DNA of 64,000 bases from contig CAXXWS020000002.1 in NCBI GenBank assembly GCA_963665325.3, positions 640,001 to 704,000 of the forward strand. The letters are read 5' to 3'. Under the pieces are notes generated by a model. It saw only the letters and a list, made by a program, of their open reading frames with translations, searched no databases and had not been told where the DNA came from. The position numbers and the translations under genes are program-made. This document shows positions 4,787-64,000 of this stretch, one piece after another. The DNA is from Alphaproteobacteria bacterium. Its GTDB lineage: Bacteria; Pseudomonadota; Alphaproteobacteria; Bin95. Every line of letters begins with the position of its first letter. Position 1 is the stretch's first letter.

Positions 4787-4822
4787 AGGCGGCGACGGTC
4801 CGGAGGTTTTCGCCGTTCAGCG

Positions 4823-5239: not shown

Positions 5240-5334
5240 GCCGTGTCTCTGGATCTGTCCCCAAGGCAGGCATGGTTGGACAGCGCGCGCGCCCGTGCAA
5301 GACTTTCGCGACGAAAAAATGACAGTTTGAGGAA

Positions 5335-6429: not shown

Positions 6430-6473
6430 TTGGCTTCGACCGGAAATTTCGGAATTGGGAAAGCAATAAGCTC

Positions 6474-7640: not shown

Positions 7641-7652
7641 GCGACGAGTGCC

Positions 7653-8802: not shown

Positions 8803-8936
8803 TGCGCCCGTTCCCCTTTGCTTTTGCGGCGGCCGGGATAGGTGGTGCGGGGGAGGCTGTCAAACGGCTGCGCGCCGGCAGCAGGCGCCATTTTCCGCGC
8901 AGCCCATCGGGCCTGCCGGAAATGCAGGAATCGGGA

Positions 8937-9937: not shown

Positions 9938-9969
9938 TCGGGCGCTCTCCTCCTGGATGCCCGCCCGGC

Positions 9970-10767: not shown

Positions 10768-10780
10768 ACCTGTCGCGCCC

Positions 10781-12055
10781 CTATTCCGCCGCCACGGCGC
10801 GGTGCGCGATGGGATCGGGTGCCGCCCGGTCGGCGGCGGACATCGGCGTCGGCCACCAGTGGTTCTCCCATTCGCTCCAAACGTCCTGGAGCTGCGGCAT
10901 CACCTGCTCGGCATAGAGCCGGGTGTTATAGTTCGCCAACTGCTTGTCCATATTGCCGAATTGCAGCAGCAGCATGAGCTGCCCGAAGCGCAGGTCGTGG
11001 ATTACATGGCGGAGTTTTTCGGCCACCTGGTCCGGCGTGCCGATGATGACATAGCCATTGTCCAGAATGGCGTCGAACTCGCGCGCCGACTTGCTGACCT
11101 GCAGCGCCTTGCGGTTCTGCAGCGCGGCGCTGGCGACCTGGCTCTGGATGCCGGCGCGCTGGGTCGCCTCGGTGGTGTAGCCCGGCGGTGCGGCGAAGCG
11201 CGGGTCGATGTGCAGGCAGCGCCCGTAGAAATACTCCGCCGGCTCGCGGTAGAGCTCATAGGCCTCCGCCTCGGTCTCGGCGACACCGACGAATTGCAGG
11301 AAGCCGGCGCGGTAGGGGTTCGGCTCCTTGCCGAGCCGCTTCATCTCCTCCCAGAAGCCCTGCATCGTCTGCAGGCCGGCCTTGTAGCCGAAATAGGAGA
11401 GGTAGCAGTACACATAGTCCATCTCGGCGCACCAGCGCCAGGTCTCGACCGACCCGCCGCCGGGGACCCAGACCGGCGGGTGGGGCTTCTGCACCGGGCG
11501 CGGCCAGATATTGATATAGCGCTGCTGGTTGAAGCGCCCGTTGAACGCGAAGGTGTCGGGTTCGGTCCAGGCGCGCATCACCAGGTCGTGGGCTTCCAGA
11601 TATCGCTCGCGCAGCAGGCTCGGGTTCTGGCCGTAGGCATAGCAGGTGTCCATCGGCGAGCCGACCGGAAAGCCGGCAATCAGGCGGCCGCCCGAGATGC
11701 AGTCGATCATCGCGAACTCTTCGGCCACGCGGGTCGGCGGGTTGTAGAGCGCGAGGCTGTTGCCCATGACGCAGAGCGCGGTGTCGGGGTTGGCGCGGCG
11801 CGCGAGCGCCGACGCGATCAGGTTGGGCGACGGCATCAGGCCGTAGCCGTTGGAGTGGTGCTCGTTGCAGCACACGGCGTCGAAGCCGACTTCCGCCGCA
11901 TACTCCATCTCGTCCATGAAGTCGTTGTACATGTAGTGGGCGCGCTCAGGATCGAACAGGCGCGAATGGATATCGACCCACACCGACGGGTTGTGCTCCC
12001 GGAAATCGTCCGGCAGCTCCGTATAGGGCATAAGGTGGAACCACAGATGCTTCAT
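10781..12055 (-). CDS. luciferase-like (LLM) flavin-dependent monooxygenase
   Basis: GFDAVCCNEHH, RVAEEFAMIDCISGGRL and PRPVQKPHPP motifs. Confidence 0.92.
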   Translation of the reverse strand: MKHLWFHLMPYTELPDDFREHNPSVWVDIHSRLFDPERAHYMYNDFMDEMEYAAEVGFDAVCCNEHHSNGYGLMPSPNLIASALARRANPDTALCVMGNSLALYNPPTRVAEEFAMIDCISGGRLIAGFPVGSPMDTCYAYGQNPSLLRERYLEAHDLVMRAWTEPDTFAFNGRFNQQRYINIWPRPVQKPHPPVWVPGGGSVETWRWCAEMDYVYCYLSYFGYKAGLQTMQGFWEEMKRLGKEPNPYRAGFLQFVGVAETEAEAYELYREPAEYFYGRCLHIDPRFAAPPGYTTEATQRAGIQSQVASAALQNRKALQVSKSAREFDAILDNGYVIIGTPDQVAEKLRHVIHDLRFGQLMLLLQFGNMDKQLANYNTRLYAEQVMPQLQDVWSEWENHWWPTPMSAADRAAPDPIAHRAVAAE

Positions 12056-12153
12056 GGGGCTTTCCCGCTTCCTTCTCGTCCGCAGCCGAGTATTGCCGCC
12101 GCCCCGCCCCGGTGCAAGCGCACCGGGGCGGGGAAGGGCGAACGGTCAGCAGG

Positions 12154-13473
12154 TCAGCGGTCGAACAGGACGCTCGGCAGCCAGGTCGCGGTTCCGGGGA
12201 AGAAGAACACGATCATCAGGCCGATCACCTGTAGCATCATGAAGGCCGCCATGCCGCGGTAAATGTCCCCGAGCGACCACTGTGGCGCCACGGCACGCAA
12301 ATAATATGCAGCCATCGCAACGGGCGGCGACAGGAACGCCGTCTGCAGGTTGACGGCCACGAGCGTGCTGAACCAGACCAGGTCGAAGTTGAGCTTGTGC
12401 ACCACAGGCACGAAGACCGGGAGGAAGATGAACACCACCGCCGGCCATTCGAGCGGCCACCCGAGAATGAAGATGACCACCATCAGGATGGCAAGCAGGA
12501 ACAGCGGGTCCACGGGCAGCCCGAGCATGAAGTTGGTCAGCAGGTTGCCCGTGCCGAGCCGGGTGAACACCGCGCCGTAGATGTTCGAGGCGACGGCCAG
12601 GAACAGCACCAGGCTGGAAGTGGTGAGCGTTTGGCGGCAGGCGTCCAGCAGGATGCGCCAGGTCAGCCGACGATAGGCCACGGTCAGCAGCGTCGCGCCG
12701 AGCGCGCCCATGCCCGCTGCCTCCGTCGGCGTCGCGATGCCGACGATGATGCTGCCAAGGGCCGAGAACATGATGACGGCCAGCGGCACGATGCCCGAGA
12801 AGAATTCCCGGAAGATCTGGCCGATCGAGGTCGCGCGGTCTTCCGGCGGCAGCGGCGGTCCGAGTTCCGGGTTCAGGAAGGAACGGATCATCGCGTAGCC
12901 GATATAGAGGGCGGCCAGGATCAGGCCCGGAATGAGCGCGGCTGCGAACAGGTCGATCACCGAGACGCCGATGATGGGGCCCATGACCAGCAGCATGACG
13001 CTCGGCGGGATGAGGATGCCGAGGCAGCCGCCAGCGGCGATGACGCCTGCGGACATGCGCGGATCGTAGCCGGCGCGGGTCATGGCCGGCGCCGCCATCA
13101 TGCCCATCACGGTAATCGACGCACCGATGATGCCGGTCGCGGTCGCGAACAGGGTGGCGGTGCCCAGCACGCCCAGATAGAGCGACCCGCGCACCGGCGC
13201 CAGAATGAACTGGAATGATCGGAACAGCCGCGCCATCAACCCGGCGCGTTCCAGGATATGGCCCATGAAGATGAACAGCGGAGCCGCGGCGAGCTCGCCT
13301 GCCTTCATGATGCCCAGGGTCTGGAAGTACATCTGGTAGAAGACCGAATCGCCGAAGACGGCGTAGCCGAAACCGGTCGCCAGGATTATCAGCGTGAAGG
13401 CGATCGGGAAGCCGACGAAAATGCCTGCGATGAGCGAGCAAAGCAGGACCAGGCCGAGAATATCCGAGCTCAT
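12154..13473 (-). CDS. dctM: TRAP transporter large permease
   Basis: Polytopic membrane protein; AAPLFIFMG, GILIPPS, GIATPTEA and FLSPP motifs. Confidence 0.94.
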   Translation of the reverse strand: MSSDILGLVLLCSLIAGIFVGFPIAFTLIILATGFGYAVFGDSVFYQMYFQTLGIMKAGELAAAPLFIFMGHILERAGLMARLFRSFQFILAPVRGSLYLGVLGTATLFATATGIIGASITVMGMMAAPAMTRAGYDPRMSAGVIAAGGCLGILIPPSVMLLVMGPIIGVSVIDLFAAALIPGLILAALYIGYAMIRSFLNPELGPPLPPEDRATSIGQIFREFFSGIVPLAVIMFSALGSIIVGIATPTEAAGMGALGATLLTVAYRRLTWRILLDACRQTLTTSSLVLFLAVASNIYGAVFTRLGTGNLLTNFMLGLPVDPLFLLAILMVVIFILGWPLEWPAVVFIFLPVFVPVVHKLNFDLVWFSTLVAVNLQTAFLSPPVAMAAYYLRAVAPQWSLGDIYRGMAAFMMLQVIGLMIVFFFPGTATWLPSVLFDR

Positions 13474-14036
13474 ACTTCGCTCCCGATCAATTCTGCATCC
13501 TCAAGGAGCGGCTTGTTCTCCACCATCGCGTAAATGCTCTTGCAGAGCTCCGAGACGCCCTGGAACAACAGCAGCGCCGCCGCGGCCGGGATCGTTGCCT
13601 TGAACGGCACGATCGACGGTCCCCACGGGGTGACGTCCGACCGTTCGGCGGTGTTGTAGGCGTGGAGCATCTCTTCCCAGCCGACGAAGAAGAAGAAGAT
13701 CATGCCGGGGAAGAAGGCGAGGATGTAGAGCGTCGTGTCGAGGGTCCCGCGGGTGCGGAACGACCAGTTGTTGTAGAAGATGTCGGTGCGGACATGGCCG
13801 CCCTTGAGCAGGGTGTATCCGGCGCCCAGCATGAAGAAGGCGCCGTAGAGCATGAAGGTGAGTTCGAAGGCCCAGTCGGTCGGCGCATTGAACACATAGC
13901 GCGAGATCACCTCAAAGCAGACGACGTAGAGCAGCGGTATCGCCAGGAACGCGATGATCCAGCCGCCGATCCAGTCCGACACGCCGTCGACAAAGCCAAC
14001 GATGCGCCGCATCCACTTCTCAATCGTTTCGTTCAT
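13470..14036 (-). CDS. dctQ: TRAP transporter small permease
   Basis: Four hydrophobic segments; RYVFNAPT.W..E and HVRTD motifs. Confidence 0.92.
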   Translation of the reverse strand: MNETIEKWMRRIVGFVDGVSDWIGGWIIAFLAIPLLYVVCFEVISRYVFNAPTDWAFELTFMLYGAFFMLGAGYTLLKGGHVRTDIFYNNWSFRTRGTLDTTLYILAFFPGMIFFFFVGWEEMLHAYNTAERSDVTPWGPSIVPFKATIPAAAALLLFQGVSELCKSIYAMVENKPLLEDAELIGSEV

Positions 14037-14086
14037 CGCAGCCTCGTTCCCTCTCGAGTTCGTTCGGGGGACATGCGCCGACGGCG

Positions 14087-15130
14087 CTACATCAGGAACA
14101 CGCCCTTGCCGGTCGTCTGGGTGTCGAACAGCTCGTAAGCCTCTACGGCCCGGTCGAGCGTGAATTCATGCGTGAACAAGGCATCCACATCGATCTTGCG
14201 CTCGGCGACGAAACGCGCGCACTCGGCCTGGCCGTTCTTAGAGAAGGTCCATGAGCCGACCACGGTCACCTGGCGGCGCAGCATGTCGTTCGACACATCG
14301 ATGGTGACATCGCCGCCCTCGCCGACGAAGCAGGCCGTGCCCCAGCTCCGCACGCAGCGCACGGCGTCGCGGCGCGCCTCGGAACTGGAGCTGCAATCGA
14401 GAGATTTCTGCGCGCCTTCGCCGCCGGTCAGGTCGCGGATCGCCTGGACGACATCGTTGGAGCGCGGATCGACGACCTCGTCGGCGCCGAATTGGCGCGC
14501 AAGCTCGCGGCGCTCCTCGCCGATGTCGAGTGCGATCACGCGCGCGCCCATTGCCTTGGCGAGTTGCGTGGCGCTCAGCCCGACCGGGCCCTGGCCGAAG
14601 ATCGCGATAGTTTCGTCGCCTGCCAGCGCGAGGCGTTTCAGCGCGCCGTAGGCCGTGCCGGTTCCGCAGGAAATCGCAGCTCCGGTCTTGTAGGAAAGTT
14701 CGTCCGGCAGCTTCACCAGCGTGTGCGCCGGCACCTTCATGTAGGCGGCATGCGCGCCATGCCCCGTCGCGCCGAAGACGGTGGTGCCGTCGAGGCACAT
14801 TTGCGACCAGCCCTGCCGGCAATGCTTGCACACGCCGCAGCCGTCATAGTGGTGGTCCATCACACGGTCGCCCACCCTGGCCAGCGCTTCCGGCACGCCT
14901 TCGCCGACTGCCGCCACGACGCCGCAGGGCTCGTGGCCGGCAATCACCGGGCCACCGGGCCCGACCATGCCGAGCGCTGCCGCGCCGCCCTTGACCCGGT
15001 ACATCTTGAGGTCGCTGCCGCACATGCCCGAAGCCTTGATCTCGATCACCGCCTCGCCGGGTCCGGGAACCGGATCGGGAAACTCCGTGAGCTCGAGTTG
15101 GCGGTCGCCGAGAAACACCACGGCCTTCAT
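14087..15130 (-). CDS. zinc-dependent alcohol/polyol dehydrogenase
   Basis: GMCGSD, GHE, CGVCKHC...C and GQGPVG motifs; start at ATG 15130. Confidence 0.92.
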   Translation of the reverse strand: MKAVVFLGDRQLELTEFPDPVPGPGEAVIEIKASGMCGSDLKMYRVKGGAAALGMVGPGGPVIAGHEPCGVVAAVGEGVPEALARVGDRVMDHHYDGCGVCKHCRQGWSQMCLDGTTVFGATGHGAHAAYMKVPAHTLVKLPDELSYKTGAAISCGTGTAYGALKRLALAGDETIAIFGQGPVGLSATQLAKAMGARVIALDIGEERRELARQFGADEVVDPRSNDVVQAIRDLTGGEGAQKSLDCSSSSEARRDAVRCVRSWGTACFVGEGGDVTIDVSNDMLRRQVTVVGSWTFSKNGQAECARFVAERKIDVDALFTHEFTLDRAVEAYELFDTQTTGKGVFLM

Positions 15131-15230
15131 GCGCCTGCCTCCATGCGGAATCGTCTGCGTGTCCGGGCCGGACAAAGCCGCCTGCCTCCCGCATGGAGCG
15201 GAAGGCAGGCAGCCCGTCAGGCCGTTGCCG

Positions 15231-16337
15231 TTACTTCTTCCAGTAGTAATCCGCCAGCCAGTCGTAATCGACCTGCGAGAACTGCCGTGCAGGCACGATC
15301 TCCTCGGCATAGACGCGCTGGGATTCGATCACCTCGGCGAAGAACGGGTTCTCCGCGATCGCCTGATCGCGGATTTCCTCCCAGGCCTTCATCTGGCCGG
15401 CGAGGATACTGTCCGGGGTCTTGTGGAACTGTACGCCCGCTTCCTTCAGCTTCTTGATCGCAATGGCGTTGAGCCTGTGCGTCTGGAGCACCTGCCAGAG
15501 CGTCGCCTCCCAGCTCGCCGACTTCATGATCTCCTGGATGTCCTTCGGCAGCGAGCGCCACACCTCACCGTTGATGATGAGTTCGATCAGCGTCGCCGGC
15601 TCATGCGCGGACGGCAGGTAGTAGTGCTTCAGGATCTGGTAGAAGCCCATGTCGATGTCGGCGGCCGGACCCGCCCACTCGGCGCAGTCGATGATGCCGC
15701 GCTCGACGGCGGGCAGGATTTCGCCGCCGGACATGTTGACGGTCTTCATGCCCGACTTCGACATCACCTCGCCGGTAATGCCCGTGGCCCGGCACTTGAT
15801 CGTGGCGAGGTCCTCCCAGCTCGTTACCTCGCGGTTGAACCAGCCGAGCGGCTGGTTGCCCACCGGCGAGATCGGGAACACGACGACATCGCGGTCGAGG
15901 ATTTCCGTGAAGAGCCGGTTGTGCAGTTCGAGGCCGCCGCCGTCATAGACCCAGCCCCAATAGTCGATCCAGTCGAAGCCCCACGGGCCGCCCGGCGCCG
16001 GGCCGAACAGCGCCGCGGCGCGGTTCTTGCCGACATAATAGGCCGATGCCGAGAATCCGCCGTCCAGGACCTTGCGGGCCGTCGCGTCCAGAAGCTCGAA
16101 CGAGGGCACGATCGCGCCGCCCGGCTGGACGATGATCTCGACGCGCCCGTTCGACAACGCGTTCACGCGGTCCGCGAAATACAGGAAGCTGTTGTGGGTG
16201 TAGAACGAAGACGGGAATGCCGTCTGGAATTGCAGCTTGATTTCCTGCGCCGAGGCGTCCTTTGCCGGCGCCATTGCGATCAGCGCGCCGGCGAATAACG
16301 CCAGGCACCAGACCGTAATTCGTTTCAACCCTGTCAT
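15231..16337 (-). CDS. dctP: TRAP transporter periplasmic binding protein (TakP/keto-acid-like)
   Basis: Signal peptide; LSNGRVEI, GWFNREV, GGEILPAVERGIIDCAEW. Confidence 0.9.
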   Translation of the reverse strand: MTGLKRITVWCLALFAGALIAMAPAKDASAQEIKLQFQTAFPSSFYTHNSFLYFADRVNALSNGRVEIIVQPGGAIVPSFELLDATARKVLDGGFSASAYYVGKNRAAALFGPAPGGPWGFDWIDYWGWVYDGGGLELHNRLFTEILDRDVVVFPISPVGNQPLGWFNREVTSWEDLATIKCRATGITGEVMSKSGMKTVNMSGGEILPAVERGIIDCAEWAGPAADIDMGFYQILKHYYLPSAHEPATLIELIINGEVWRSLPKDIQEIMKSASWEATLWQVLQTHRLNAIAIKKLKEAGVQFHKTPDSILAGQMKAWEEIRDQAIAENPFFAEVIESQRVYAEEIVPARQFSQVDYDWLADYYWKK

Positions 16338-16476: not shown

Positions 16477-17045
16477 TCAGCCTCTTCCGTCCGCGTCGAT
16501 TCGCGCACGCTGGCGCTCATACATCATCGCGTAGCGCAGCCAGTGGTTGTATGCCGTGGTGAGCGCGAAGAGGAAGCCGCAACGGCCTTCCCGCCACTGG
16601 CCGCGCAGGAGGTAATTCCGGAGGAAAAAGACAGGCAGGCCGAACCAGACGCGCAGGGCAACCGGGCGCCGCCGCCCGTTGTCGAGGAAACGCACGCGCC
16701 GAACCATCGCGCTGGCCTGCTTCCGGGAGAGATGATCGATATCGTCGAAGGCATGGTGCAGTAGCGGCCCCCAGAGCGGGCGCACCCGGAGCCCGGGGGG
16801 GATGCGGAACTGGTCCCATGCGCCGTGTGCGGGCATGCGTACTTTGCGGCGGTCGTAGAACTTGGCGCGCCGGGGCGCGCGCGCCCTTCGCCAGATACGT
16901 CCCGACGGATCGACGGTCATGAGAGAGAGCCGGTACACCTCGCCGTCCGGCTCGCCCCCGGCGAACAGGTCCCGGACCTCCCGCGCCAGCTCATCGCTGA
17001 CGATCTCGTCGGCATCGACGTCCAACAGCCAGTCGTGCCGGCAGA
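16477..17045 (-). pseudogene. 3' fragment of a GT2 glycosyltransferase (WaaE/KdtX-like)
   Basis: CRHDWLLDVDADEIVSDEL (DxD), LLHHAF and FFLRNYLLR...G..GF motifs; the N-terminal domain is absent here. Confidence 0.75.
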
Positions 17046-17319
17046 GTCGACGTCGACCGGCGCGCCGGGCTGATCCTCGTATGACATCGGCGAACCGGCG
17101 CGCAATGCTTGCCATCGGCGGGGCGAGTTGCCAACTCCGCGAAGCCGCATCGACACCCCCTTGGTCGACTACGAGCGAACATCGTGCCCCCCCGGTCCGA
17201 CCGTCATGGCTGGTTTTGTTGATGCGATACGAACCCGGCCGCCCGCGAGCAAAGTTGTGCAACCGGGGTGCGGCGGGTTGGAAATTTTGGAGACAATTTC
17301 GTGGGTCGCAAACAGGCGC

Positions 17320-18159
17320 TTAGACGCCCTTCTGGAGCTTGTCAAAGACGACGTTGCGGTAATTCGGCGAACCCTTCGGCGTCGACCTCGGAACAAAACC
17401 GGCGTCGGCCATCAACGCCGTAAGTTCACGCGACCGCGTCTCACTACCCTCGATTTCGACGATCACTGATCTAACAGTCGGCGCCAAAAGCATATTTCGT
17501 CCGCCCCGTAGAATGTCGGGCTCCAGACCGTCGACGTCAAGCTTCAAGTGCGTCGGAAGCGGCAGCGAAAACAACCGGACGAGATCATCCAAAGAAAACC
17601 CAATACCACCCTGGCGGAACTTAACCCCGATGACATTATCAAGCTGGTCAACCATAACACCAAAGCCATGTTTCGATCCACCAGGATCTGTGTTGGCCAT
17701 GTTCAGCTTGTCGATTTTCGTATCCCCGCAAAGGGCGGCCGGTAGTGTCGTTATCCGGTCATCCATGCCGTTCAGCTCTATGTTTCTATTGAGCGCCCAG
17801 TAAGAGGCTGCTCCGGGCTCAAAAGCCAGAACCTGTACATTCGGGCGCAAGGCAGCATAAAGACTGTATACTCCCACATTTGCGCCGATGTCCCAGAACA
17901 CAACAGGATCATTAGTGAAATTATCAATCCAAGCGATAGTGTCGGGCTCGGAACGGTCAAGCTGTGAAAATCTTATGCCACTTTCCGAGACAAATTGAAG
18001 AGTGCCCCAGCGTGTATCTGAAATCAAAGGTTTTCTCTGTAATAGAATCGAATGAGCGCGATATAATGCCTTGATCTTACGTTTTTTGCCGAACGGATAA
18101 GTGATCCCGTGAGCAAAAACATATATAAGCCGGGCCAAAGTTCGACTCACTTTCAGCAC
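17320..18159 (-). CDS. FkbM family methyltransferase
   Basis: FWDIGANVGVYSL, AFEP and HLKLDVDGLE motifs; visibly lower GC than the flanks. Confidence 0.9.
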   Translation of the reverse strand: MLKVSRTLARLIYVFAHGITYPFGKKRKIKALYRAHSILLQRKPLISDTRWGTLQFVSESGIRFSQLDRSEPDTIAWIDNFTNDPVVFWDIGANVGVYSLYAALRPNVQVLAFEPGAASYWALNRNIELNGMDDRITTLPAALCGDTKIDKLNMANTDPGGSKHGFGVMVDQLDNVIGVKFRQGGIGFSLDDLVRLFSLPLPTHLKLDVDGLEPDILRGGRNMLLAPTVRSVIVEIEGSETRSRELTALMADAGFVPRSTPKGSPNYRNVVFDKLQKGV

Positions 18160-18308
18160 TCCTTAATTCGATTTCTTGGCAATTCTTAGCTAGCCTTATG
18201 CTCTACTGCTGCATATTCAGGCGGTTTCTCTGTCCCACGTCGGCCAATCTTTTCCCATTTTGAGCGGATCGATCAACGGAACCACGCCCTGCAACTTTCA
18301 ATCGCGTG

Positions 18309-19039
18309 TTAGGACGAATTCAGCGCCTGGCGGCGGCGCAACCAGTCCGCTAGACGGTAGCTGACCGCAGCCGCGTACTCCAAGACAGTCCGCTTGACCT
18401 TCGGCTTGGTCTTGATGGAAGGCGGACCCCCGCGTGTCGGACGATAGCCGGTTCGACGGCCAGGAACACCAGTCCGTTTTGCCACCATTCCGCGTACAGC
18501 CAGTCTATTGGCGCGCGGATGCGCCAGCAGTAGTGAAGGAGCGCTTCGGCTGCCTCCATCCGGATAATGTAGCCGACCGCCCCGCCAAAGCGGCGACGAT
18601 ACCTGACAAGCCGACGCCCGGTGTCCAGCACCGCTAGGACTCGGTCAATGCGGTATTGCCGTTTCGGCGCGAGTTGCACGATGTCCCATTCCACATCGGC
18701 CTTCATGATTTCCTCAATGATGACGGCAAACTCGTCCTCCAGCCGCGCATCGTCCTGCAAGATGATAGCGTAAGGCGTTCGGGCTTCTACCATGCGTTGC
18801 CAGATGAACCAGTTCGACAGCAAGCACCCGATCTGACCCGGGGCCAGTTCGCGGCCCCGCATGACCCGCCACCACTCGGTCTGCATTCGGTGCCGATGCT
18901 CTTCCTCGTCAAGCTTGTCCCCGTCCACAGCGTCGAAGAATTCGAAATCGAACTCGGCAAGCTCCTGTCGAATGGCAGCACGGCGCTCGACGTCCCTTGC
19001 GAGGGAAATTACAAAGATGGGCGGCATAGTTCTCGGCAT
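18309..19039 (-). CDS. glycosyltransferase family 25 (Lex2/LgtB-like), probable frameshift near the C-terminus
   Basis: IFVISL...RR, FFDAVDG, GQIGC..S, IILQDD and PID motifs. The ORF as read stops at 18350; one extra G in the G5 run at 18427-18431 gives a natural-looking tail ending at 18309. Confidence 0.85.
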
Positions 19040-53950: not shown

Positions 53951-54640
53951 TCAGACCGGGCGGTCGCCCTCCAGAATGATGCGCCAGAGCGTCCGGGAGT
54001 GCTGCCGGTCGTAGTCTCCGTGGGCGCGGTGCATCGCGGCCCGGTTGTCGCAGACGACCATGTCGCCCTGCCGCCAGCTGTGGCGGTAGACGATGCCGTC
54101 CTGGATCGTGCGGTCCAGCAGGTCCTGCAGCAGCGTCTGCGAGGCTTCCGGCTTCATGCCCTCGATGCAGCGGGCCTTGGTGATGTGGAAATAGAGCGCT
54201 CTTGAGCCGTGCTCGGGATGGGTGCGGACCATGGGGTGGATCGCAGGGATATCGTATTTTTCCCAATCCTCGGCGCGCGTGTCGGTCAGGTGGCGGTCGA
54301 GCCCGTTGACCGTCTTCAGCCCTGCAAGGCGCTCCCGCTCGTCCGCATCGAGGCCCGCATAGGCCGCGCGCATGTTCGCGAAACTGGTGTCGCCGCCCTC
54401 GGGCGGGATTTCCACACCGTAGAGGATCGTCGCCTTGGGCGGGCGCTCGCGGTTGGTGTGGTCCGTGTGCCAGCGTTCGGCCGGGCGCTGTCCGTTGCGG
54501 TGCCAGATGCGCCCGATCATCGGTTGGTCCGGCATGTTGTGCTGGCTGTAATGCTGCGCCATCGGTTCGCCGAGCTGCGAGCAGGCCGCCAGATACTCGT
54601 CAGGCGTGAAGTTCTGTTCGCGGAACACCAGCACAACGCA
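53951..54640 (-). pseudogene. TauD/TfdA Fe(II)/2-oxoglutarate dioxygenase, 5'-truncated
   Basis: VLVFREQ, WHTD, GGDTSFAN, HPMVRTHP and DNRAAMH motifs. The N-terminal segment is missing, with an in-frame TAG at about 54650. Confidence 0.8.
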
Positions 54641-54687
54641 CCTGCGGTGCTAAGAGGTTGATAAAGCGTCTGTTTTTCCTCGTGCAA

Positions 54688-54734
54688 TTGCAGGTCAGGG
54701 ACAAAAATGCAAGTGCATTTTCCCCCGCCTGCAA
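54688..54734. repeat. imperfect palindrome upstream of the integrases
   Basis: TTGCAGG...GGG...AAAATGCA-AG-TGCATTTT-CCC...CCTGCAA. Confidence 0.6.
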
Positions 54735-54754
54735 CAGAACGCAGGAGGGAATCC

Positions 54755-55876
54755 ATGTCCAATGTCCGCCTCAGCCAGAGCCGGGTCGAGGCCCTTGAGG
54801 CCCGGAGAGCGCCATACGACATCCGCGACCGTGACTTGAGGGGCTTCGGCGTCCGGGTCCTGCCCTCTGGCGCCAGGCGATATTTCGTTCACAGCCAGCA
54901 TGAGGGACGACGTTTCTGGAAGACTGTCGGAGACGCCGGCAGCATCGGTCTTGACGAGGCCCGCCGACGGGCGACGGAACTGCTCGCCGCTTTCCGGCGC
55001 GACGAGCCGCCTGCCCTGCCGGAGGAGAGGCTGTTCGAGGCCGTTGCCGAGGAGGTCTTCGACCGCTACGGGCGGCACTGGAAGCCCCGGACCATGAAGG
55101 TCAACCGGAACTATCTGCGCAACCAGATCCTGCCCTGGTTCCGGGGACGGGATATCGCCGACATCGACCGGCAGGATGTGCAAAAGTGGTTCGCCTCGTT
55201 GCGCGCCACGCCCGTGGCGGCCGACCGGTCCGCGCCGGTGCTGTCGGTCATCATGCGCCAGGCCGAGCTTTACGGCTGGCGCCCGGAAGGCAGCAATCCC
55301 TGTGTGGGCATCCGCCGCTACCGGCGCAAGGGACGCGAGCGCTTCCTGTCCGGGCAGGAACTTCTCCGTCTCGGGACCGTGCTCGACAGCCACGAGGCTG
55401 CGCATCCGCGGGAGGTATCGTTCGTCCGCCTGCTGCTGCTGACCGGCTGCCGGGTCAGCGAGATTGCGACCCTCCAGTGGTCCGACTACCGGGAGGGCCG
55501 CCTGTTCCTGCGCGACGGCAAGGCCGGCCCCCGGACTGTGTGGCTGTCCTCGCCCGCGCGCGCCGTGCTGGCCCGGCTTCCCCGGAAGGGAAAGTGGGTT
55601 TTCCCCTCGCCGCAGCGGCGCGGGCCGCTCTCCGTGACGGTCTTCGAGACCTTCTGGCGCCGGGTCCGGCAGGAGGCGGGCATTGCCGACGTGCGGCTTC
55701 ACGATTGCCGCCACACATATGCCAGCATCGCCGTCATGCGGGGCGAAACCGTCACCACGACGGCGCGGCTGCTCGGCCACAACGACGCGGCGACGACGCT
55801 GAAATACGCCCATCTGTCCGACCGTTCGGCGCGCGAGGCTGCCGACGCCCTCGCCGCCATTCTCGGGGAGGTCTGA
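54755..55876 (+). CDS. tyrosine recombinase/integrase with an N-terminal arm-binding domain
   Basis: RDRDLRGFGVRV.PSG arm domain; TGCR..E, DGK, LHDCRH, LLGH and TLKYAH catalytic set intact; SD GGAGGG. Confidence 0.95.
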   Translation: MSNVRLSQSRVEALEARRAPYDIRDRDLRGFGVRVLPSGARRYFVHSQHEGRRFWKTVGDAGSIGLDEARRRATELLAAFRRDEPPALPEERLFEAVAEEVFDRYGRHWKPRTMKVNRNYLRNQILPWFRGRDIADIDRQDVQKWFASLRATPVAADRSAPVLSVIMRQAELYGWRPEGSNPCVGIRRYRRKGRERFLSGQELLRLGTVLDSHEAAHPREVSFVRLLLLTGCRVSEIATLQWSDYREGRLFLRDGKAGPRTVWLSSPARAVLARLPRKGKWVFPSPQRRGPLSVTVFETFWRRVRQEAGIADVRLHDCRHTYASIAVMRGETVTTTARLLGHNDAATTLKYAHLSDRSAREAADALAAILGEV

Positions 55877-55879
55877 TCC

Positions 55880-57043
55880 ATGCCGGTACGGAAAAGGCTC
55901 ACCGACGCCGGCATTGCGCGGCTCCACCCCGAGACGCGCGAATACACGGTATGGGATACCCGGGTCGCCGGTCTCGGGGTCAGGGTCCGCCCCACCGGCA
56001 GCCGGACCTTCATCTACAGCTTCAAGACGGCCGGCGGCTTGCGGAAATTGTCCTTCGGCCCGGCGGTGCTCGGTAGGGTCGAGGAGGTGCGCCGCGCCTG
56101 TCTTGCGGCGGCGGCCGAGGCTGCAACGGCGGCTGAGACGGACGAGCGGCCCCGCGAGGCAGTGCCGCTCTTCCGGGATTTCGTTGCCGGCCCCTGGAAG
56201 GCGGACCGCTTCGACCGCTGCAAGCCTTCCACGCAGAGGAGCTTCGCCGGCATCCTGAAACGCCAGCTGCTTCCGGCCTTCGGGTCCCGCCGTCTCGACC
56301 GGATTACCCGCAGAATGGCGGTCCGCTGGTTCGAGACCTACAGCAGGACCGCTCCGGGAACGGCCAATGTCGCTCTCGACCTGCTGGGGCAGATATTCCG
56401 CCATGCGCGCGCCTGCGGCCATATTGCCGCCGATCCTGTCAGAGGCATCGCTCGCAATCCCGTGAGGAATCACACCCGGTTCCTGTCCCGCGAGGAAATC
56501 GCCCGGCTTCACCGGGTCCTTGACCGACACGCCGAAGGCTCCGCGTCGCAGGCGCAGCAGGCCGACATCGTCCGCCTGCTGCTGCTCACCGGCTGCCGCA
56601 AGGGCGAAATCCTGCGCCTGCGCCGGGACGAGGTGAAGGAGGATCGGCTGGAACTCGCCGACAGCAAGACCGGGCCGAGAACCGTTCTGCTGAATGCCGG
56701 CGCACGGAAAATCCTGGCGCGCCGCATGGCGCAGGGAGAAGGTCCCTGGGTCTTTCCTTCCGCCGGCGATCCGTCCCGGCATCAGTTCTACGGGCTTCGG
56801 CTCTGGTATGTCGTGAGACGCGAGGCGGGTATTGAGGATGTGCGCCTTCACGACCTTCGCCATACGGTAGCCAGCCAGGCCGTGCTGAACGGCGTGCCCT
56901 TGACCGTCACCGCCCGCCTCCTCGGTCACAGCGACGTGCGCATGACCCTGCGCTACGCGCATGTCGGAGACCGCGAGGTCGAAGCAGCGGCCGAGCGGGT
57001 CGGAGCGGCAATGGCCGCCGCGATGGCGCCTTGCCGCGACTGA
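55880..57043 (+). CDS. second tyrosine recombinase/integrase with an arm-binding domain
   Basis: WDTRVAGLGVRVRPTG arm domain; TGCRKGE, DSK, LHDLRH, LLGH and TLRYAH intact. Confidence 0.95.
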   Translation: MPVRKRLTDAGIARLHPETREYTVWDTRVAGLGVRVRPTGSRTFIYSFKTAGGLRKLSFGPAVLGRVEEVRRACLAAAAEAATAAETDERPREAVPLFRDFVAGPWKADRFDRCKPSTQRSFAGILKRQLLPAFGSRRLDRITRRMAVRWFETYSRTAPGTANVALDLLGQIFRHARACGHIAADPVRGIARNPVRNHTRFLSREEIARLHRVLDRHAEGSASQAQQADIVRLLLLTGCRKGEILRLRRDEVKEDRLELADSKTGPRTVLLNAGARKILARRMAQGEGPWVFPSAGDPSRHQFYGLRLWYVVRREAGIEDVRLHDLRHTVASQAVLNGVPLTVTARLLGHSDVRMTLRYAHVGDREVEAAAERVGAAMAAAMAPCRD

Positions 57044-57058
57044 AGGGATGCGTCGCTT

Positions 57059-57368
57059 TCACCACCGCGCCGCGATTTCCACGCCGACAGTGTGCTGTGG
57101 CGCTTGCGTGCCGCTTTCCCTGCGGGTCGCCTTGAGCCCGAACGACAGGTTGGGCGCGGTTGCGGCTTCCGGTGTCAGCCGCCAGCCGAGGCTGTAGTCG
57201 CGCCCACCGGTGGCGAGGCCGAGGCCCATATGCGGTGCCGGTACAGCGACCGTCGAACGCCGGGAAGCCCCAGGCCGCCTTCATCGACCAGCGCGCCGAC
57301 GCCTCGCTGCTGCCCTCGCGATCCTCCAGCGGCTCCGCCGTGGACAGCGCATCCAGGCCGCCGCCCGC
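57059..57368 (-). pseudogene. C-terminal remnant of an autotransporter-like beta-barrel
   Basis: GGLDAL...RWSMKAAWGFPAFDGR / PHMGLGLATGGRDYSLGWRLTP...HTVGVEIAARW-stop, with one frameshift and a terminal Trp. Confidence 0.65.
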
Positions 57369-57566
57369 CCGCCCCGATCCTGAATCGGGCGCACATCCAG
57401 CCCGAAGCGGTCGGCGAACTTCTGCCGGCTCGGCTTCGTGCGCTTACGCAGCGCGACGATCCGCTAGGCGACAGGGTCGTCCACGATCCGGCAGGGCAAC
57501 GCCGTCTCGCCCCGCAGTGGGGTAGCACCTCGCCTGGCGCCGCACTGCTGAAATCGGGCAACCCAT
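57369..57566 (-). pseudogene. decayed XRE-HTH antitoxin (HigA/NadS-like)
   Basis: GEVL.H / LRGETALPCRIVDDPVA*RIVALRKR.K.SRQKFADRFGLD.R.IQD; internal stop, frameshift, 3' end missing. Confidence 0.6.
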
Positions 57567-57602
57567 TGAGAAACCGCCGATATACAACTTCCCCTTTTTT
57601 GC

Positions 57603-57638
57603 TTTGGACCCTTCTCAATCGGTCCTTTTGGGTCCAAA
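57603..57638. repeat. 9-bp inverted repeat at the GC-content transition
   Basis: TTTGGACCC-N18-GGGTCCAAA. Confidence 0.6.
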
Positions 57639-57689
57639 CTGTCGTCGAAGCGAGATGGGAAACTCTGTCAAGACGGCGGGAGCCAGAAA

Positions 57690-60600
57690 ATGAACATCCG
57701 TACCTTGTTCGGCATATCGGCGGCACTACTCGGTATGCTCCCGATTCAACTGTCACATGCCTATACAGTTCCCGATTCGTTAGTAAACACAGTCAGATAC
57801 TATTACGAATCCAATAAAAACAAATCTCCGACATATGGATGCAATTGGTTTCGCGTACTTATCGCATATGGAGACAAGGAAGCCGGGCATTGGCCTGGCG
57901 GAGGCAGTTGCAGTCTGGTGCCATATACCGTCGCAGAAGCAAAAGCATCTGAATACCAATGGAATGGCTGGACACCCATTCGCGAATCTCTGGAAAAGAT
58001 TGAAGCTGCCCCCCCCCCCCCCGCAGCCTAAGCCCCAACAGGCACAATCTAATACTCCCGTGCCAGAGTTTATTATCACTGGCGGCGGGCAAACAATAAC
58101 AGAAGGTGGATCGGTTACCTTCTATATAAACAAATCAAACACTGCTACTATGACTGGATCGATCACACTCAATATCACCATCACTGGCGGCGATGACTTT
58201 GTACCCAGTAATACCCTAACCGTAATTGTACCCAGTTCCGGTTCCAAATCTTTTACCGTTAATACAGTTCAGGATAGTGTGGATGACCCGGATTCTTCTG
58301 TTGTTACCGTTGCATTGGCAACTGGAACGGGATACACTATCAACAGCCTTTTGAATTCAGTCACATTTACGGTTCAGGATGATGATGCAGTAACGACCCC
58401 CATTCCTCCAAAAACCGTGAACCCCAAGAATTATTGTAACTTCAATACACATTCATATGCTGAAGAAAACATTTGTGTTTATTTAACACTCTCATCCAAT
58501 TCCAGTTCGATAATAGACGAAGGTGATGCGATAACCGCGACAGTATATACTGATAGGAATGTAAAGGATTTCAATGGACTCACTATCAATATCGCTATTG
58601 CCGACAACAACGGATATATAAACGGTGTAGTCCCGAGCTCTATCCATATCCCCCGCTTCAAAGGCAAGGCAACATTTACACTGAATACAGAAGATGATAA
58701 TATAGACGAAAACGATGGTGTGATTAAGGTCAGTATTTCTCCGGGAGCGGGTTATTTATTGACAGATGACGGACGCAATGAATTTGAAATTAATGTGCGT
58801 GACAACGATATAGGCCCGCCTCCGGTAATTACCATCAGCAGTCTTGGCGATATTACGGAAGGCAATCAGGCCAGATTCAATGTCGTGGCAACGCCCACTC
58901 CAAAAGGTCCTGTTGTGGTATATTACACGGTATCTCGCACAGGAGACTTTGACAATTATGGCGGCAAAGTCTATCTGAAAGCTATTACCAAATACGATAC
59001 ATTATTGTCCTTGGATACCGTAAACGACGCTGCAGATGAGCCCGACGGTTCCATCACTGTCACACTACAGGAAGACGATGAAGACGGATACGACTTGTCG
59101 GCCTATTATACATTATCCTCAACTAAAGCGGCTACCGTTGCAGTCAAAGATGATGATCTTTCAGAAGCAAACAAACTGGTTGAGAATGCCTGCGTTTCCG
59201 ACGCCATGAAAAACCGTGTAAAATACTACATCTCTGAAGTCCGCAGAGGCGCCGCCCATGTGTTGAAATGGAAAAATGCATTAAACATCCTCAGCGGTAA
59301 TGATAGCACCAAGGCGTTGGAAGATTTGCGAATCAGTGCCAAAGCCCAAAAAGATAGAGGCTGGTCGAGATGGGATGAAATTCATAAAGCGGTTGTCTGT
59401 ATGCAAGGTGCTTCTGGTGAACCCGTACTTGTGTTGGCAAGCGATGGCAATATTGTTACCGAAGGCAATACCGCTTCGGTAACGGTGAGTGGGTCACTGG
59501 CTTTCAGTTCCCCAACCGATATAGCGCTGTATATTAGCGGTGACTTCGTGACTGACAGTCCTCTGACATGTCAATTCCCCGCCGGTCAAACTGCACATGC
59601 ATGCGCAATAGTCACGAACGCAGCTAATGGCACCATAGATGCCGATGGCACTTTCAAAGTGGAGTTGAAGCCTGGAGCAGGATATATACTCGGCGATACA
59701 AATATCGTCAACATACCAGTTGCCGATGCCGACACCCCTACAATCACCATAAAGCAGATACCTGGCTCGGACGTTGTCACGGAAGGTGGGACGGCGAGCT
59801 TCAATTTTTATACTACCGATACCAGTAAGGCATCTTCTGTGAAGGTGAAGATTGTGGATGGCGCAAACTTTGTCTCCAGCGGCCAGGCTGGAACCAGAAC
59901 GGTGAATGTAGGTCCCGGCGGCGACGGAGGAGTTGGCAGTATAAGTGACCCATCAGTTTTAACCGTAGTTACCGACAATGATAGCGTTCCTGAATCCCCG
60001 AGCAGGATTACCGCTACTATTCAGCAAGGTTCTGGTTACAGGGTAGGCGCGGTTTATACTACCCGTGTCGCAGTCCAGGATGACTCAGATGGTGGCAGCC
60101 GCCATAACGTGAATAGCTATTATCTTGAAGGCTGCGATGAGGATCACCAGAACTGTAACCTGGTGGAATCTGAGACATTCACTTCGGCGGAATGTTTTAC
60201 AGCTCAATCAGTCCGAAAAAACAAATATGTGTTGCCGAGTGCCACTACCATTGAAAACAGCGCATATACTCTGAATCAGATCCGCGGCGCAGGCAGCGCC
60301 GTCGACTACGGCAAGCGTCCTACAGGCAGTCCGCACTTCCCCGCAAACAGAACGAAGTATGCGGCGGAGTTCGTTTATCCCGACGGCAAGGACTACTTCT
60401 CGGAGGACGAAGAAGTAACCGTGCGGTTTTATGTGGCAAACTATAATCCCAACTACCCGAATAGAGATGACAACTATGAGCAACCCACAGAAGGCTATCT
60501 ATGCTCGAAGGATAAAAACGGGACTATCAAGAAGGATTCCCGCTGGGTAAACGATTGGAAATGGGGTCCGGGTGGAGTCCAGGCTCCCGCGAGCCAACCT

Positions 60601-63600
60601 ACCGACTTTGCATCCACATATGAAAGCGGCCCGGATGGGGTCATAAAAGTCCATCCTGTTCCCAAGGACACGTTGATAGATTTCACCGGCGGGTACGGTG
60701 TGCCCATGAACCAGAACCATATAAAATTTCTCGTCACCGGAACCAGCGGCGTTGTTCGCCCTGTTGGTCTTCACGACTTGCACTTCAGTCCCGGCGATCT
60801 ATACAAGGATTACAAGTTTGTTGTAGGCGCCAACTGCCGTAGAGACGGTACGCTACCGCCTCAGGATCGCATAACAAACTTCAATAATAACTATGATGAC
60901 GGAAATAAATACTTCCGTCATGGCAGATGGGATTATACAGGCGACAATACCTTCAGAGACCCTGTAGGGGTGTATATCAGCGATCAGAGGAACTATTCAT
61001 GCGAAACAGGCGAAGCGTACGGCACTTCATGTAGCGGCAATTCCGGTTATGGAACTCCTATCTATTGCATGAAGCCTGATGACCAAGGACAAGTCACTCT
61101 AAGCAGCTTTGGCGTTTCAGGTAATGGCGGTTCCTGGGCTGGGAACAATCTGAAAGCGAAAATCAGGCCCAAGGCGGCCGGTGAAGATGCTTTTGTTGTC
61201 GAGGGATATGTCAAGAGGATCACAGAAGGCCATCCACTGACGTATTTTATTACGACCCATGATGGCCAGGAGCCCAAGCAGGGGGGAACAATTCATCTGA
61301 AGGCAACTGCTGTTGCCGGCGGAGCGCCGTTTGAGAACGATCAGAAAACCAAGGTTGTTGACATTCCAATAACCATTGGTAATGGCTGGTTTAGCCGCGC
61401 GGCTCCATATAACGGAGGTTTTATGTTTCAGGATTTCCTTACGGATGATGACAGTAAGAATGAAGGCGACTCTATTGTCAGGCTTGAAGTGGCCGAAGGT
61501 AACGAGTTCCCAATAAGATTTGCGAATGGTGAAGGTTACTTTGAATATACGGTGCTCGATAATGAAGCCGTCACCCTTAATTCGACATTGACCAACAACG
61601 GTATTTCCGAAACCAGCGGAACGGCGACACTGACCGTTAAGCTGCCGGAAGGAACTGTTGATGGCGATGATGCAGATATGATAGTGGATATTCTTCCGGC
61701 ACCCTATACATATTTCCACAATCATATCGACTGGACAGATCCCAGTGGTAATGGCGACAAGAGGCAAACGGCCACAATAGAAGCGACGGGTTGCGCGAGT
61801 GCTGTTCCCGCAACTGAAGCGGCTCCATATTTCAGATGTGTAGTATCCGCCTCCACCGCGGCGCAGTCGCTAACCTTTACATTCAGGGCACTGCCGCAGG
61901 GTGATGAATCGGATGACCGGAATCCAGGTCACACATATGATTTGGGCTTCCATGTAGGGCATTACCAGGAAGCGCAAAGCCTGCAACCGCAGTATGAGAT
62001 AACGGGCACAAGAGACGAATACAAGACGCTGGACGGTGTACTGTCGGTAGCAGGTGACGGAACAGACTTTACTGGGGCCAATGCAATCAAGGTACAGTCG
62101 GTTCCCGGTATTTTCGGCAACACTGGCATTGATAGCATCGTAATGGGCGCTTTCAAAGGCAACTATGGCGATGGCCAAATACCTTCCGATGCAACGCCGC
62201 TTGCCAATATAACGTTCTCGGAACCCGCTTCGAATGATGAAAGCCTCTTGAACAATGGCGATACGGTATATATCGCTTTCAAGAGAACATCGTCTAATCC
62301 GGAACAGTCTAAAGTGGTATCTACGACCTTCGATGTAGCTTTCAATCATGGGACAGCGATACCGGGCAAGGATTTCAGGGTATATTCATACGATCCCCGA
62401 AAATATTGCAAGGGTAGCGCCAGTTTCACGACCAACGCTCAAGGCCGGGTGATTGCCCAATGCGATGGTACATGGAGCACGGATACCAGAGACTGGCATT
62501 CATATGATTATGGTAGAGGCGTGAGCAACAGCATAGGCGATAGGGTTACGGTGGGAAGGTCTCTCAATGAGTGGGTTGTGGGTTTCAAACTGGTGCCCAT
62601 GAGGGATAATCTGGATGAAACTGCTGAAACTGTGATCGGGAGGTTTTTCAGAAAATCTATATCGTCTGCTAAAGGTGTATATCACTCACATTATACAAAG
62701 CTGCAAGGCGAAGTAAATGCAACTCTCGAAAATGCAGGTGCGGGTACCGTCCAAAACATAAGTAATGTGCAAGTAACTATACCTGATGTCACAGCACCAG
62801 AAGGCACACCGACAAAGTTTACCATGACGGTAAACTTCCCAAGTAATCAAAATGGCTGCCTTACCAGTAAACTGGATACGGATGCGCTTTGGGCATATCC
62901 TACCTTTTTGCAACCTGCTGTTGCTGGAAAGGCGCATGTTGGCAAACTGGTAAATCAGGGAGATTTTCTGATTGGTAATACTGCTACCGATAATGGACTA
63001 CAGTCGAATTCACACAGGTTTGCAGATACACGTTTCAAAATCTGTAGCACCAATACAAAGAAGGCCATTACCAGAGACTTTTACATATACGCACATTCTG
63101 ACGGGATAAATGATAATGGCGAAACGGCTAAATTGAAATTACAGGTGCCAAGCTATACTTCCGGTGGTAAGAAGTACGACAATAAAGTGACGGTAACGAA
63201 CGGAACATTGACCATTACCAATGATGGCCCGCTTCCTAAGGAGTGGATTGCGAGGTTCGGTCATGTCGTAGCCAGTGAAACGGTGGAAGCGGTGTCGGAC
63301 AGGGTAAGGGCGGACAGGAAGCCCGGTAGCAGCAGTCTTTCATTCGGAGCAATGCCTGGCGAAGAAGTGGCTATCACACAGGGTTCGGAAATAGTCGAGG
63401 GCTCTTCTTTCCATATAACCAGTGCCGAAAGGGATGGAGCCACATTGTCCGCATGGGGCAAGGTTTCCACATCCTCATTCGACGCCAGTGTAACCGACAT
63501 GGATCTGGATAGTGATAATACCCACGCAATGTTGGGTATTGATTATGCCGCAGGTTCATGGCTGGTCGGTGTTGGAGTCGGCTTGCATAATGGTGAGGGA

Positions 63601-64000
63601 GGAGCCGAAATGCTTGGTGAGGCTCTGGTATATGACATCGAAAGCAAGGTATCGAATGTCTTTCCATACGGGTCGATTACGGTGGGCAGCACAAAGGTGT
63701 GGTCGACGATCGGTTACGGTACCGGTGAAATCAGTATAAGACAGGAGTTGGGCAGTGGTGAAAAGAGTGACCTGGGAACTGCCGATACGGAATGGTGGAT
63801 GGCGGCTACAGGGCTCCGCTCGACGATGTTCGATGCCAAACATTACAGTATGGCAATTGTTGGCGATGTATTCTGGACCTCAATCGAATCTGGCGAGGGT
63901 GCTGGATATAGGGCGGCAGAGGCGGAGTCACACCGTGAAAGATTGGGTCTGGAAGTGGATATGGACTTTGACAGATTGTCATTTACCCCGTCGATATTTG
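57690..64000 (+). CDS. giant secreted Calx-beta-like repeat adhesin with a C-terminal autotransporter-like barrel; frameshifted at poly-C; partial
   Basis: Signal peptide MNIRTL...LSHA. The frame stops at 58031, but hand translation of the frame starting at 58021 shows no stop to the window end. Repeated (I/V)TEG...D.DE.DG...G.GY...V.DDD modules, then NDGPLPKEWIARFG and barrel strands (WGK, LGIDY, WLVGVG, FPY, W...GYGTG). Confidence 0.88.
58009..58022 (+). repeat. C14 homopolymer tract
   Basis: Fourteen consecutive C at 58009-58022; C13 or C16 would join the two reading frames. Confidence 0.92.

Follow-up and report, generated by a model that had tools for sequence, protein, structure and literature searches.

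Can two adjacent integrase genes of the same type serve together as one recombination module, and what kind of mobile element would such a module drive? The question is raised by an alphaproteobacterial genome (here G000), in which two tyrosine integrase genes, intA and intB, follow one another at the left end of a genomic island. The analysed stretch, referred to as the window, is 64,000 nucleotides (nt) long and corresponds to G000:C3:640001-704000; positions given without a contig are those of the window. Its G+C content is ~68%, with a sharp fall to 44-51% from 58 kb on. The analysis supports the intA-intB pair as an obligate, co-diverging unit of a mobile element. The pair is likely the left-end recombination module of a multi-copy family of integrative, probably mobilizable islands of low target specificity, with the two integrases acting jointly. 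Integrases are the usual handle by which mobile islands are found and classified, and the tools take it that an island has one integrase and an integrase one site. Here, a fixed arm-type integrase pair defines a large family moving surface proteins, defence systems, and relaxases into many genes.

The integrase pair as one unit

The two genes are:
54755-55876 (long open reading frame from 54707), plus strand: intA, arm-type tyrosine integrase of 373 amino acids (aa; 389 from 54707)
55880-57043, plus strand: intB, paralogous tyrosine integrase of 387 aa

Three nucleotides separate the intA stop from the intB ATG. As the first-pass annotation had read from the letters of the window, the two proteins are clearly diverged paralogues (39% identity over 376 residues, E 5e-59 in BLASTP). 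Its intA start also agrees with ours: position 54755 is the likely start because AGGAGG precedes it and the alignments of homologues begin at residue 15-17 of the long open reading frame (ORF). Both proteins match the Pfam families Phage_integrase, Phage_int_M, and Phage_int_SAM_3 (76.5 and 73.6 bits for PF00589) and are tyrosine recombinases by PF00589 and the R-K-H-R-H/W-Y residues. The complete catalytic set read in each of them recurs in the aligned homologues, the R, K, H, R, H, and Y columns being invariant in 37/37 IntA and 36-37/37 IntB sequences. An N-terminal arm domain had likewise been assigned to both, and both are of the arm type (Arm-DNA-bind_3, P4-like). IntA scores 32.4 bits for this domain against a cut-off of 27; in the case of IntB, which is itself below the threshold, the assignment comes from its alignment to IntA, running from residue 6 through the arm motif, and from PF13356, present in many close IntB homologues according to precomputed domains.

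In G000, 11 pairs in the order A then B were found by tblastn, all on one strand within the pair, with gaps of 3-40 nt and 55-82% identity to intA/intB. Both ORFs are whole in 10 of the 11 (A is split in C1_1252), and the genome also holds truncated copies and more distant integrase clusters. When all ORFs of 20-kb stretches were compared with each other, the two integrases were the only genes common to the 11 loci. Searches of reference genomes gave 74 tblastn-confirmed loci, including 42 with IntA at 44% identity or above; nearly all of these 42 belong to uncultured Alphaproteobacteria, whose genomes have several copies each. Homologues are not solitary: a second integrase lies directly 3' of intA in 40 of the 42 loci, and at the remaining two (L053, L062) the contig ends at the intA stop. 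In some of the 40 the second gene is interrupted or cut by a contig end.

Within a genus sample, IntA is matched at E<=1e-90 in 8/10 other genomes (1-10 matches each), and in 0/20 genomes of two sister genera. In a class-wide survey, which scored 9 candidates per genome and counted single matches rather than pairs, 14/200 other genomes match at E<=1e-60, only 2 of them at >=55% identity. A metagenome-wide protein search with IntB gave 6737 matches among 8000 scored candidates; at least 120 protein clusters at >=70% identity to IntB are among the matches listed, most of them named merely 'integrase'. Sponge-metagenome runs have only small shares (0.07-0.16), and no habitat is claimed.

The two genes diverged together. 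The distance matrices of A and B, calculated over 37 pairs, are correlated with a Mantel r of 0.968 (0/2000 permutations as high), and the A and B trees have 15 of 34 bipartitions in common, against a mean of 0.18 under label shuffles. This set leaves out L055 and L070 (ORF extraction) and the cut, interrupted, or duplicate copies L043, L044, L046, L053, L057, L058, L062, L065-L067, L069, L071, C1_1252, and C4_13. The result shows long joint inheritance of A and B without swapping, and the two co-evolving clades anticipated by the first-pass annotation are indeed present. The Shewanella oneidensis MR-1 megaplasmid and a Vibrio europaeus plasmid each carry two adjacent annotated integrases; the first genes show 41% identity to A versus 30-33% to B, and the second genes 36-39% to B versus 31-33% to A. 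In a joint tree the plasmid first genes fall in the A clade and the second genes in the B clade; therefore, the A/B duplication is old and the gene order has been kept.

A physical association of the two proteins was approached by complex prediction, using alignments made for this analysis. The core-binding and catalytic parts of both proteins gave a score of 0.52 (median of three), and the best of 3 controls gave 0.00. The runs agree in >=73% of contacts, and the partner pLDDT is >=80. The mark applied is reached by 116/157 solved complexes and 2/215 mismatched pairs; the range of passes at <=0.60 holds only 18 of the 157 solved complexes and both passing mismatches. The predicted IntA-IntB association is thus weakly supported, and the pass may reflect memory or likeness only, tyrosine recombinase oligomers being among the solved structures. 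The heteromeric integrase proposed at first pass gains weak support from this model, the one direct test of it, and its joint action stays conditional here.

Instead of both proteins recombining DNA, one integrase might recombine and the other be a specialised paralogue, with a division between integration and excision or a regulatory or directionality role. The conserved operon would suit such a partner, and a screen of 53 small ORFs from intergenic parts of the island gave no Xis/AlpA-type gene, which leaves a directionality role to be filled. Two ribbon-helix-helix (RHH) genes in the right part of the island could equally serve directionality. We regard the specialised-paralogue reading as unlikely: the six catalytic residues are kept by both proteins over the 37 pairs, which argues that both cut DNA.

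Several further arrangements of integrase genes are present in G000. One has four genes side by side (C1:615395-619994) and another three (C3:1061903-1065315); others are found at C4:37567-39906 and at C3:6909-9235, the last present also at C5:283-2609 (one pair duplicated at two contig ends). The genes of these clusters of two to four adjacent integrases are only 35-41% identical to both A and B. At one family locus, C1_777, and its near copy C4_13, a third integrase of 465 aa (L111:2584-3978 = G000:C1:779584-780978) overlaps the end of intB; it is not found at the other ten loci. These two copies correspond over 14.4 kb at 99.7% identity (C1:777009-791436 and C4:1-14439), the latter cut by the end of contig C4, so that the C4 copy is either a recent duplicate or a repeat made by the assembly.

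It could also be imagined that the pair arose by tandem accretion of two single-integrase islands, or that it is a degenerate member of a RIT-, GInt-, SE-, or Tn554-like group; the other integrase clusters of G000 (the rows of four and three) and the third integrase of C1_777/C4_13 speak for this. It is nevertheless extremely unlikely, as the A-B gaps are merely 3-40 nt with no att-like sequence between, the order is fixed, no third recombinase or small partner is common to the 11 loci, and the best NCBIfam matches are far below their cut-offs (48-58 versus 330-335 bits for XerC/D and 18.5 versus 600 for GmtZ).

Island boundaries, ends, and target

The features that define the island ends are:
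53951-54634, minus strand: 3' part of a tauD-family dioxygenase gene, cut at the left junction of the island (positions 40-266 of the TauD Pfam profile only)
54625-54634, plus strand: left copy of the 10-bp repeat ACACCAGCAC (attL side; attL, attR, and empty site compared), with ACACC as the conserved target motif
54637-54652, plus strand: left-terminal motif C-GCACC-TGC-GGTGC-TA, a 5-bp dyad with a 3-nt spacer
54653-54754, plus strand: leader between the terminus and intA (TTGAT..., T-run, CCTC block), conserved within subfamilies
G000:C3:711133-711142, outside the window: right copy of the 10-bp repeat ACACCAGCAC
G000:C3:711125-711283 (L021 11125-11283), minus strand: N-terminal piece of tauD, ~46 codons, beyond the right end of the island and just before tctA

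The island has split a tauD-family gene. It is ~16.5 kb long, from position 54635 of the window to G000:C3:711142, much of it beyond the window, and is flanked by the direct repeat. This extent follows from four observations: the break in the flank, the empty site in a relative, the repeat, and the displaced N-terminus of TauD. In the relative G012, an intact 288-aa tauD-family gene is followed by tctA, which represents the unoccupied site. The homology of five relatives to the left flank ends exactly at 54634, and the G012 sequence past the break resumes at C3:711130 onward, with a 13-nt overlap. The repeat is contained in attL, in attR, and in the empty site of G012, which has a single copy. 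The target reads GGAACACCAGCAC / GATG, attL reads GGAACACCAGCAC / AACGCACC, and attR reads TTGGCACACCAGCAC / GATG, where the slash marks the junction. A sixth relative, G011, has the same integrase pair in the same place, at 92.7% identity. In the public run X12, one 340-nt contig spans attL with 2 differences; the integrase region in contigs of the public runs is a tangle of paralogous contigs.

The motif (C)GCAYC-N3-4-GRTGCTA is present in 43/43 left ends examined, ~100-130 nt upstream of intA. Its 5-bp dyad is paired in 97% of cells, with a spacer of 3 or 4 nt. One position changes from C:G to T:A on both sides in 8/40 sequences, and another is unpaired in 5. The dyad fits a dimer-binding site or a hairpin equally well. 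The leader which follows possibly holds a promoter or protein-binding sites.

Outside the element, 6-8 nt before GCAYC, ACACC occurs in 38/43 junctions, and the other 5 show one-base variants. Target positions further out than ACACC are not conserved, and neither is the target sequence past the other end of the repeat. The 43 junctions have ~38 different flanks, which bears out the varied insertion sites expected at first pass. Elements 91-94% identical to each other occupy different sites and differ in the bases that follow ACACC (the L049-L053/L062 group; C1_1252, C1_1508, and C5_261), which means that the repeat takes its variable half from the target sequence and not from the element.

These junctions also bear on the possibility that the elements are ordinary site-specific islands, with an attB fixed in each lineage, ACACC a shared piece of the core, and the copies belonging to many lineages. 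The same site is occupied across genomes in several cases (L040 and C4_1029; L041 and L044; L049, L051, and L062; the present island and that of G011), the near-identical C1_777 and C4_13 retain almost the same 13 nt at the junction, and the repeat equals the target sequence, all as such islands would have it. We consider this quite improbable, given ~38 flanks among 43 junctions, near-identical elements at different sites with different bases after ACACC, and a far side of the repeat that shows no conservation of the target.

Right ends were sought as exact downstream matches to the 10-mer of the left junction (C4_13, the eleventh copy, was outside this search). The candidates, with their distances, are:
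+11.2 kb: C1_1787
+16.5 kb: the present island
+19.0 kb: C5_261
+30.8 kb: C4_1029
+40.0 kb: C1_777
+62.6 kb: C1_1686
+72.3 kb: C1_1199

Three of them were verified by empty sites: the present island, C1_1787 (in G011), and C5_261 (5/5 relatives). The right end of the present island spans ~450 nt, with ~75% identity to two places in contig C1. In a coding test, the reading frames disagree among the three copies, and the 450-nt end is for this reason treated as non-coding. An nhmmer profile of the right end matched just its three source copies, plus weak matches, two in L032 (one of them the likely right end there) and one at C1:1793140-1793270. Across the family, then, right ends lack sequence conservation, and the two ends of the island showed no terminal inverted repeat. 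The C1_1787 element contains the conserved right end a second time, inverted, at G000:C1:1791187-1791702; the flank of this copy resembles the left target flank of C1_1787 itself, a hint of an earlier inversion or of another insertion.

In the reading that we favour, each element consists of the terminal motif, a short leader, intA, intB, variable cargo, and a poorly conserved, AT-richer right end with its own ACACC. It inserts beside a target ACACC and leaves a 10-12-bp direct repeat, made of ACACC and 5-6 variable bases; specificity is therefore low and the sites are many. We infer that IntA and IntB form a heteromeric tyrosine recombinase working on a single pair of att sites. One of the two would recognise the side with ACACC, which is common to attB and the right end, and the other the palindromic left end, with the arm-type N-terminal domains positioning both. 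The ends and the 5-bp target motif are defined enough for a mini-element, and the need for two catalytic recombinases is directly testable.

The perfect repeats ask for a source. A heterology-tolerant tyrosine transposon of the Tn916 type would not leave perfect repeats where the variable half differs. By analogy with what has been proposed for GInts, one candidate is an identity-dependent choice of site from a pool of attP variants, and heteroduplex repair is an alternative candidate.

A more far-reaching version has a low probability in our estimate: the elements may form a new transposon class, with heteromeric arm-type integrases, a target consisting of ACACC only, a hairpin left end, and integration of a folded single strand (e.g. 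delivered by TrwC). Integron attC sites and the CTX phage integrate through a folded single strand. If true, folded-strand integration would explain the low site specificity, the spacer tolerance of the dyad, and the link to relaxases.

Cargo and transfer

The island contains, in order, intA, intB, a surface-gene remnant, a giant ORF, a Slam gene, a TbpB-like gene, a cold-shock gene, the RHH pair, 20-nt repeats, and the right end. The features next to intB are:
57059-57382 (~330 nt), minus strand: remnant of the 3' part of a gene for a large Calx-beta surface protein; convergent with intB and ending ...GVEIAARW
57690-58031, plus strand: short ORF whose start resembles a signal peptide, shifted by one base against the frame of the giant ORF and stopping just past a C14 tract
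57835-64000, continuing to G000:C3:704305, plus strand: giant surface-protein-like ORF (44-51% G+C), cargo inside the island
58009-58022, plus strand: the C14 tract, which separates the signal-peptide ORF from the giant ORF

The remnant shows 72-82% nucleotide identity to segments directly after intB in L033, L035, L042, and L048. It also matches C3:1006647-1006974, where a complete gene for a 1652-aa Calx-beta protein is convergent with intB. The old barrel remnant of the first-pass annotation is indeed the remnant of a surface-protein gene, complete at a sister locus, and its 73 aa give no Pfam barrel match. For these 73 aa, the C-terminal 401 aa of the giant protein, and a 666-aa N-terminal stretch of it, Pfam gave nothing at E<=0.01 (weak sub-threshold matches only), and a sequence search of the PDB with giant-protein stretches and the remnant gave no match. 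The 'autotransporter barrel' would accordingly be a reading of the letters.

The giant gene has no match in five relatives, G011 among them. In G011 the Slam/TbpB part of the island is present at 87% identity; because G011 shares the island and this part but not the giant gene, the latter is a later arrival inside the island. It is covered without differences in contigs of the public runs X12 and X13. No signal peptide is encoded in frame with the giant gene, and the upstream signal-peptide-like ORF meets it at C14; this frame break is either slippage-based phase variation or an assembly error at the homopolymer.

Beyond the giant ORF, genes for a Slam-type assembly protein and a TbpB-like lipoprotein lie on the minus strand. 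Between the TbpB-like and cold-shock genes there is a tandem repeat (REARGA... in one frame) at L021 9149-9276 (G000:C3:709149-709276). The two RHH genes lie in the right part of the island, outside the window, one of them over the NikA-like cut-off. Next to them, at L021 10424-10642 (G000:C3:710424-710642), a partly palindromic unit of 20 nt, TTRTGGCGCAAC..CACAAG, is repeated seven times; this array may be an RHH binding site or operator, or an oriT. Two copies of the unit are also found at C1:1222416 and 1222446, beside homologous RHH genes. The neighbours of intA-intB that were tested gave no match to an excisionase, relaxase, or phage family, and no tRNA gene was found in the window. The first-pass statement that excisionase and relaxase are missing holds for the window; the right part of the island adds the RHH genes, and sister elements carry TrwC.

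The cargo of four other elements was surveyed by Pfam scans of 75 ORFs:
C5_261: Slam, a TbpB-like protein, an insertion sequence, and a 1442-aa TrwC relaxase
C4_1029: siderophore-like biosynthesis genes, LysR, TrwC, and McrBC
C1_777: the third integrase, type I restriction-modification, GmrSD, lipopolysaccharide (LPS) glycosyltransferases, and a TrwC-like gene
C1_1787: a partial Na/Pi transporter (Pfam), other integrase genes, and a Slam fragment (tblastn)

Adhesins had been proposed as the cargo that characterises the element. Surface-protein genes do recur beside intB, and the giant gene and the Slam/TbpB-like genes are present here, but the cargo is not specifically adhesins. As a defining cargo they fail, the sister elements carrying type I restriction-modification, GmrSD, McrBC, siderophore-like genes, LPS glycosyltransferases, and TrwC. 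Large surface proteins are a recurrent, not a defining, cargo of this subfamily.

TrwC lies within the verified C5_261 element and within the putative bounds of three others; a TrwC gene 13.7 kb downstream of C1_1508 is 99% identical to that of C5_261. Because sister elements carry these relaxases, cell-to-cell transfer would occur by conjugative mobilization. The RHH pair of the present island, with the first two 20-nt repeats, is 93% identical to C1:1221563-1222460, which adjoins a TrwC gene, and the island may be a relaxase-less relative, possibly dependent on a relaxase in trans. An integrative mobilizable element is defined by an integration module of its own together with a relaxase and/or an oriT, while a full transfer apparatus is missing; the present elements are probably of this type. 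In the genome as a whole, 43 TauD-family matches and ~25 TrwC-like matches amount to an unusual load of both. Elsewhere in the window, at 17001-19000, the G+C fraction dips to 0.56, compared with ~0.67 around it.

Several observations weigh against joint action of the two integrases in a mobile, mobilizable island. Any two linked genes would be expected to co-diverge, and co-divergence is no proof of joint work; the third integrase gene after intB in C1_777/C4_13 makes 'two only' less than universal. The exact 10-mer gave no right end for C1_1252, C1_1508, and C4_1089 (3/10 copies with a usable repeat), and in the case of four other right ends the evidence consists of the 10-mer and an AT-richer context. 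The perfect 10-bp repeats with a differing variable half also count against it. No strict sigma-70 promoter was found in the leader, a scan of 54560-57900 giving 0 promoter-like sites. The insertion common to G011, at 92.7% identity, means that the present copy may be old and immobile. Excision and a circular form of the island are putative: no contig crossing the island and no circle junction was seen in the contigs of four public runs for the island part 1-15900, contigs being unable to show rare forms. As to transfer, the island itself has no relaxase, just the NikA-like RHH genes and the repeat array, and an oriT role for the latter is a guess.

Comparison with known systems

Classical islands carry one integrase (with Xis) and use one specific site, often in a tRNA gene. 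The elements described here differ from classical P4-type islands of this kind in their fixed integrase pair and their many sites. Candidate assignments were also compared by model scores: both integrases are far under every curated NCBIfam cut-off, including XerC/D (48-58 bits against cut-offs of 330-335), and the GmtZ model gives 18.5 bits against 600. The pair thus belongs neither to XerC/XerD nor to the GInts. Chromosomal XerC/XerD are single-copy and act at dif, whereas one genome here holds 11 pairs, inside islands.

The published systems are taken below as the available parts of the cited reports describe them. With P4-type islands and integrative mobilizable elements, our elements share the domain architecture of each protein, the direct repeat, and putative mobilization modules with a relaxase or an oriT only (PMC5704250); a term search of the available part of that review found no two-integrase systems. 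ICEPmu1 and ICEMh1 are conjugative, fixed at tRNA-Leu with an 11-13-bp repeat, and carry a 'XerCD-like pair' (PMC6861422). Adjacent tyrosine recombinases are there too proposed to cooperate at the element ends, and it is by description only, i.e. conjugation and the fixed tRNA-Leu site, that these elements are set apart from ours (PMC6861422).

As in RIT and Tn554-type units, adjacent tyrosine recombinase genes mark a putative mobile unit abundant in alpha- and betaproteobacteria (PMC3414803). The RITs are trios (ritABC) of adjacent, overlapping genes, ~3.5 kb long and without cargo (PMC3414803). Our 11 loci, by contrast, have two genes in common and cargo of 11-40 kb or more, and are not RITs. 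Tn554-type tandems combine a long protein (611-828 aa) with a short one (PMC3414803), with or without TnpC; here the two proteins are equal in size (~375-390 aa, 372-435 aa over the family set), with arm-type N-termini and large cargo, which sets them apart by description. BIM (bipartite module) was tried as a candidate and rejected, as it combines one recombinase with an unrelated protein.

The likeness to GInts is greater. Both have the recombinase operon at the 5' end, then variable cargo that ranges from kilobases to tens of kilobases, and an AT-richer 3' end with little conservation; direct repeats are ~10-11 nt long, and insertion occurs into genes (PMC5385486). GInts have three recombinase-like genes and a small GinD (ginABCD), are highly site-specific, and leave imperfect repeats (PMC5385486). 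Our elements differ in having two arm-type genes, many sites, and a 5-bp target motif, with no GinC/GinD counterpart among the shared genes. SEs likewise have two catalytic tyrosine recombinases in a left-end operon, defined terminal motifs, and transposon-like spread without a DDE or HUH enzyme (PMC10214605). Their order is intA-tfp-intB-srap, with 13-19-bp terminal inverted repeats, a 6-bp spacer, and, in the available description, no matching flanking repeats; they occur only in Gammaproteobacteria, in 1-2 copies per replicon (PMC10214605). SEs are also described as leaving no empty site after recombination. In the present elements intB follows intA within 3-40 nt, with no gene in between; the SE gene order, inverted repeats, lack of flanking repeats, host range, and copy number do not hold for them, and they are not SEs.

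In the full-text literature searched, no arm-type integrase pair is described as an element family, and subscription journals or supplements may hold such pairs. Because gene content and model scores differ, the intA-intB elements do not fit RIT, GInt, SE, Tn554-like, or XerCD systems, nor any other multi-integrase element in that literature, and the layout singled out by the first-pass annotation as unlike known multi-recombinase systems keeps this standing. The feature is real and well-delimited, and it is new within a known kind, that of integrative elements driven by several tyrosine recombinases.

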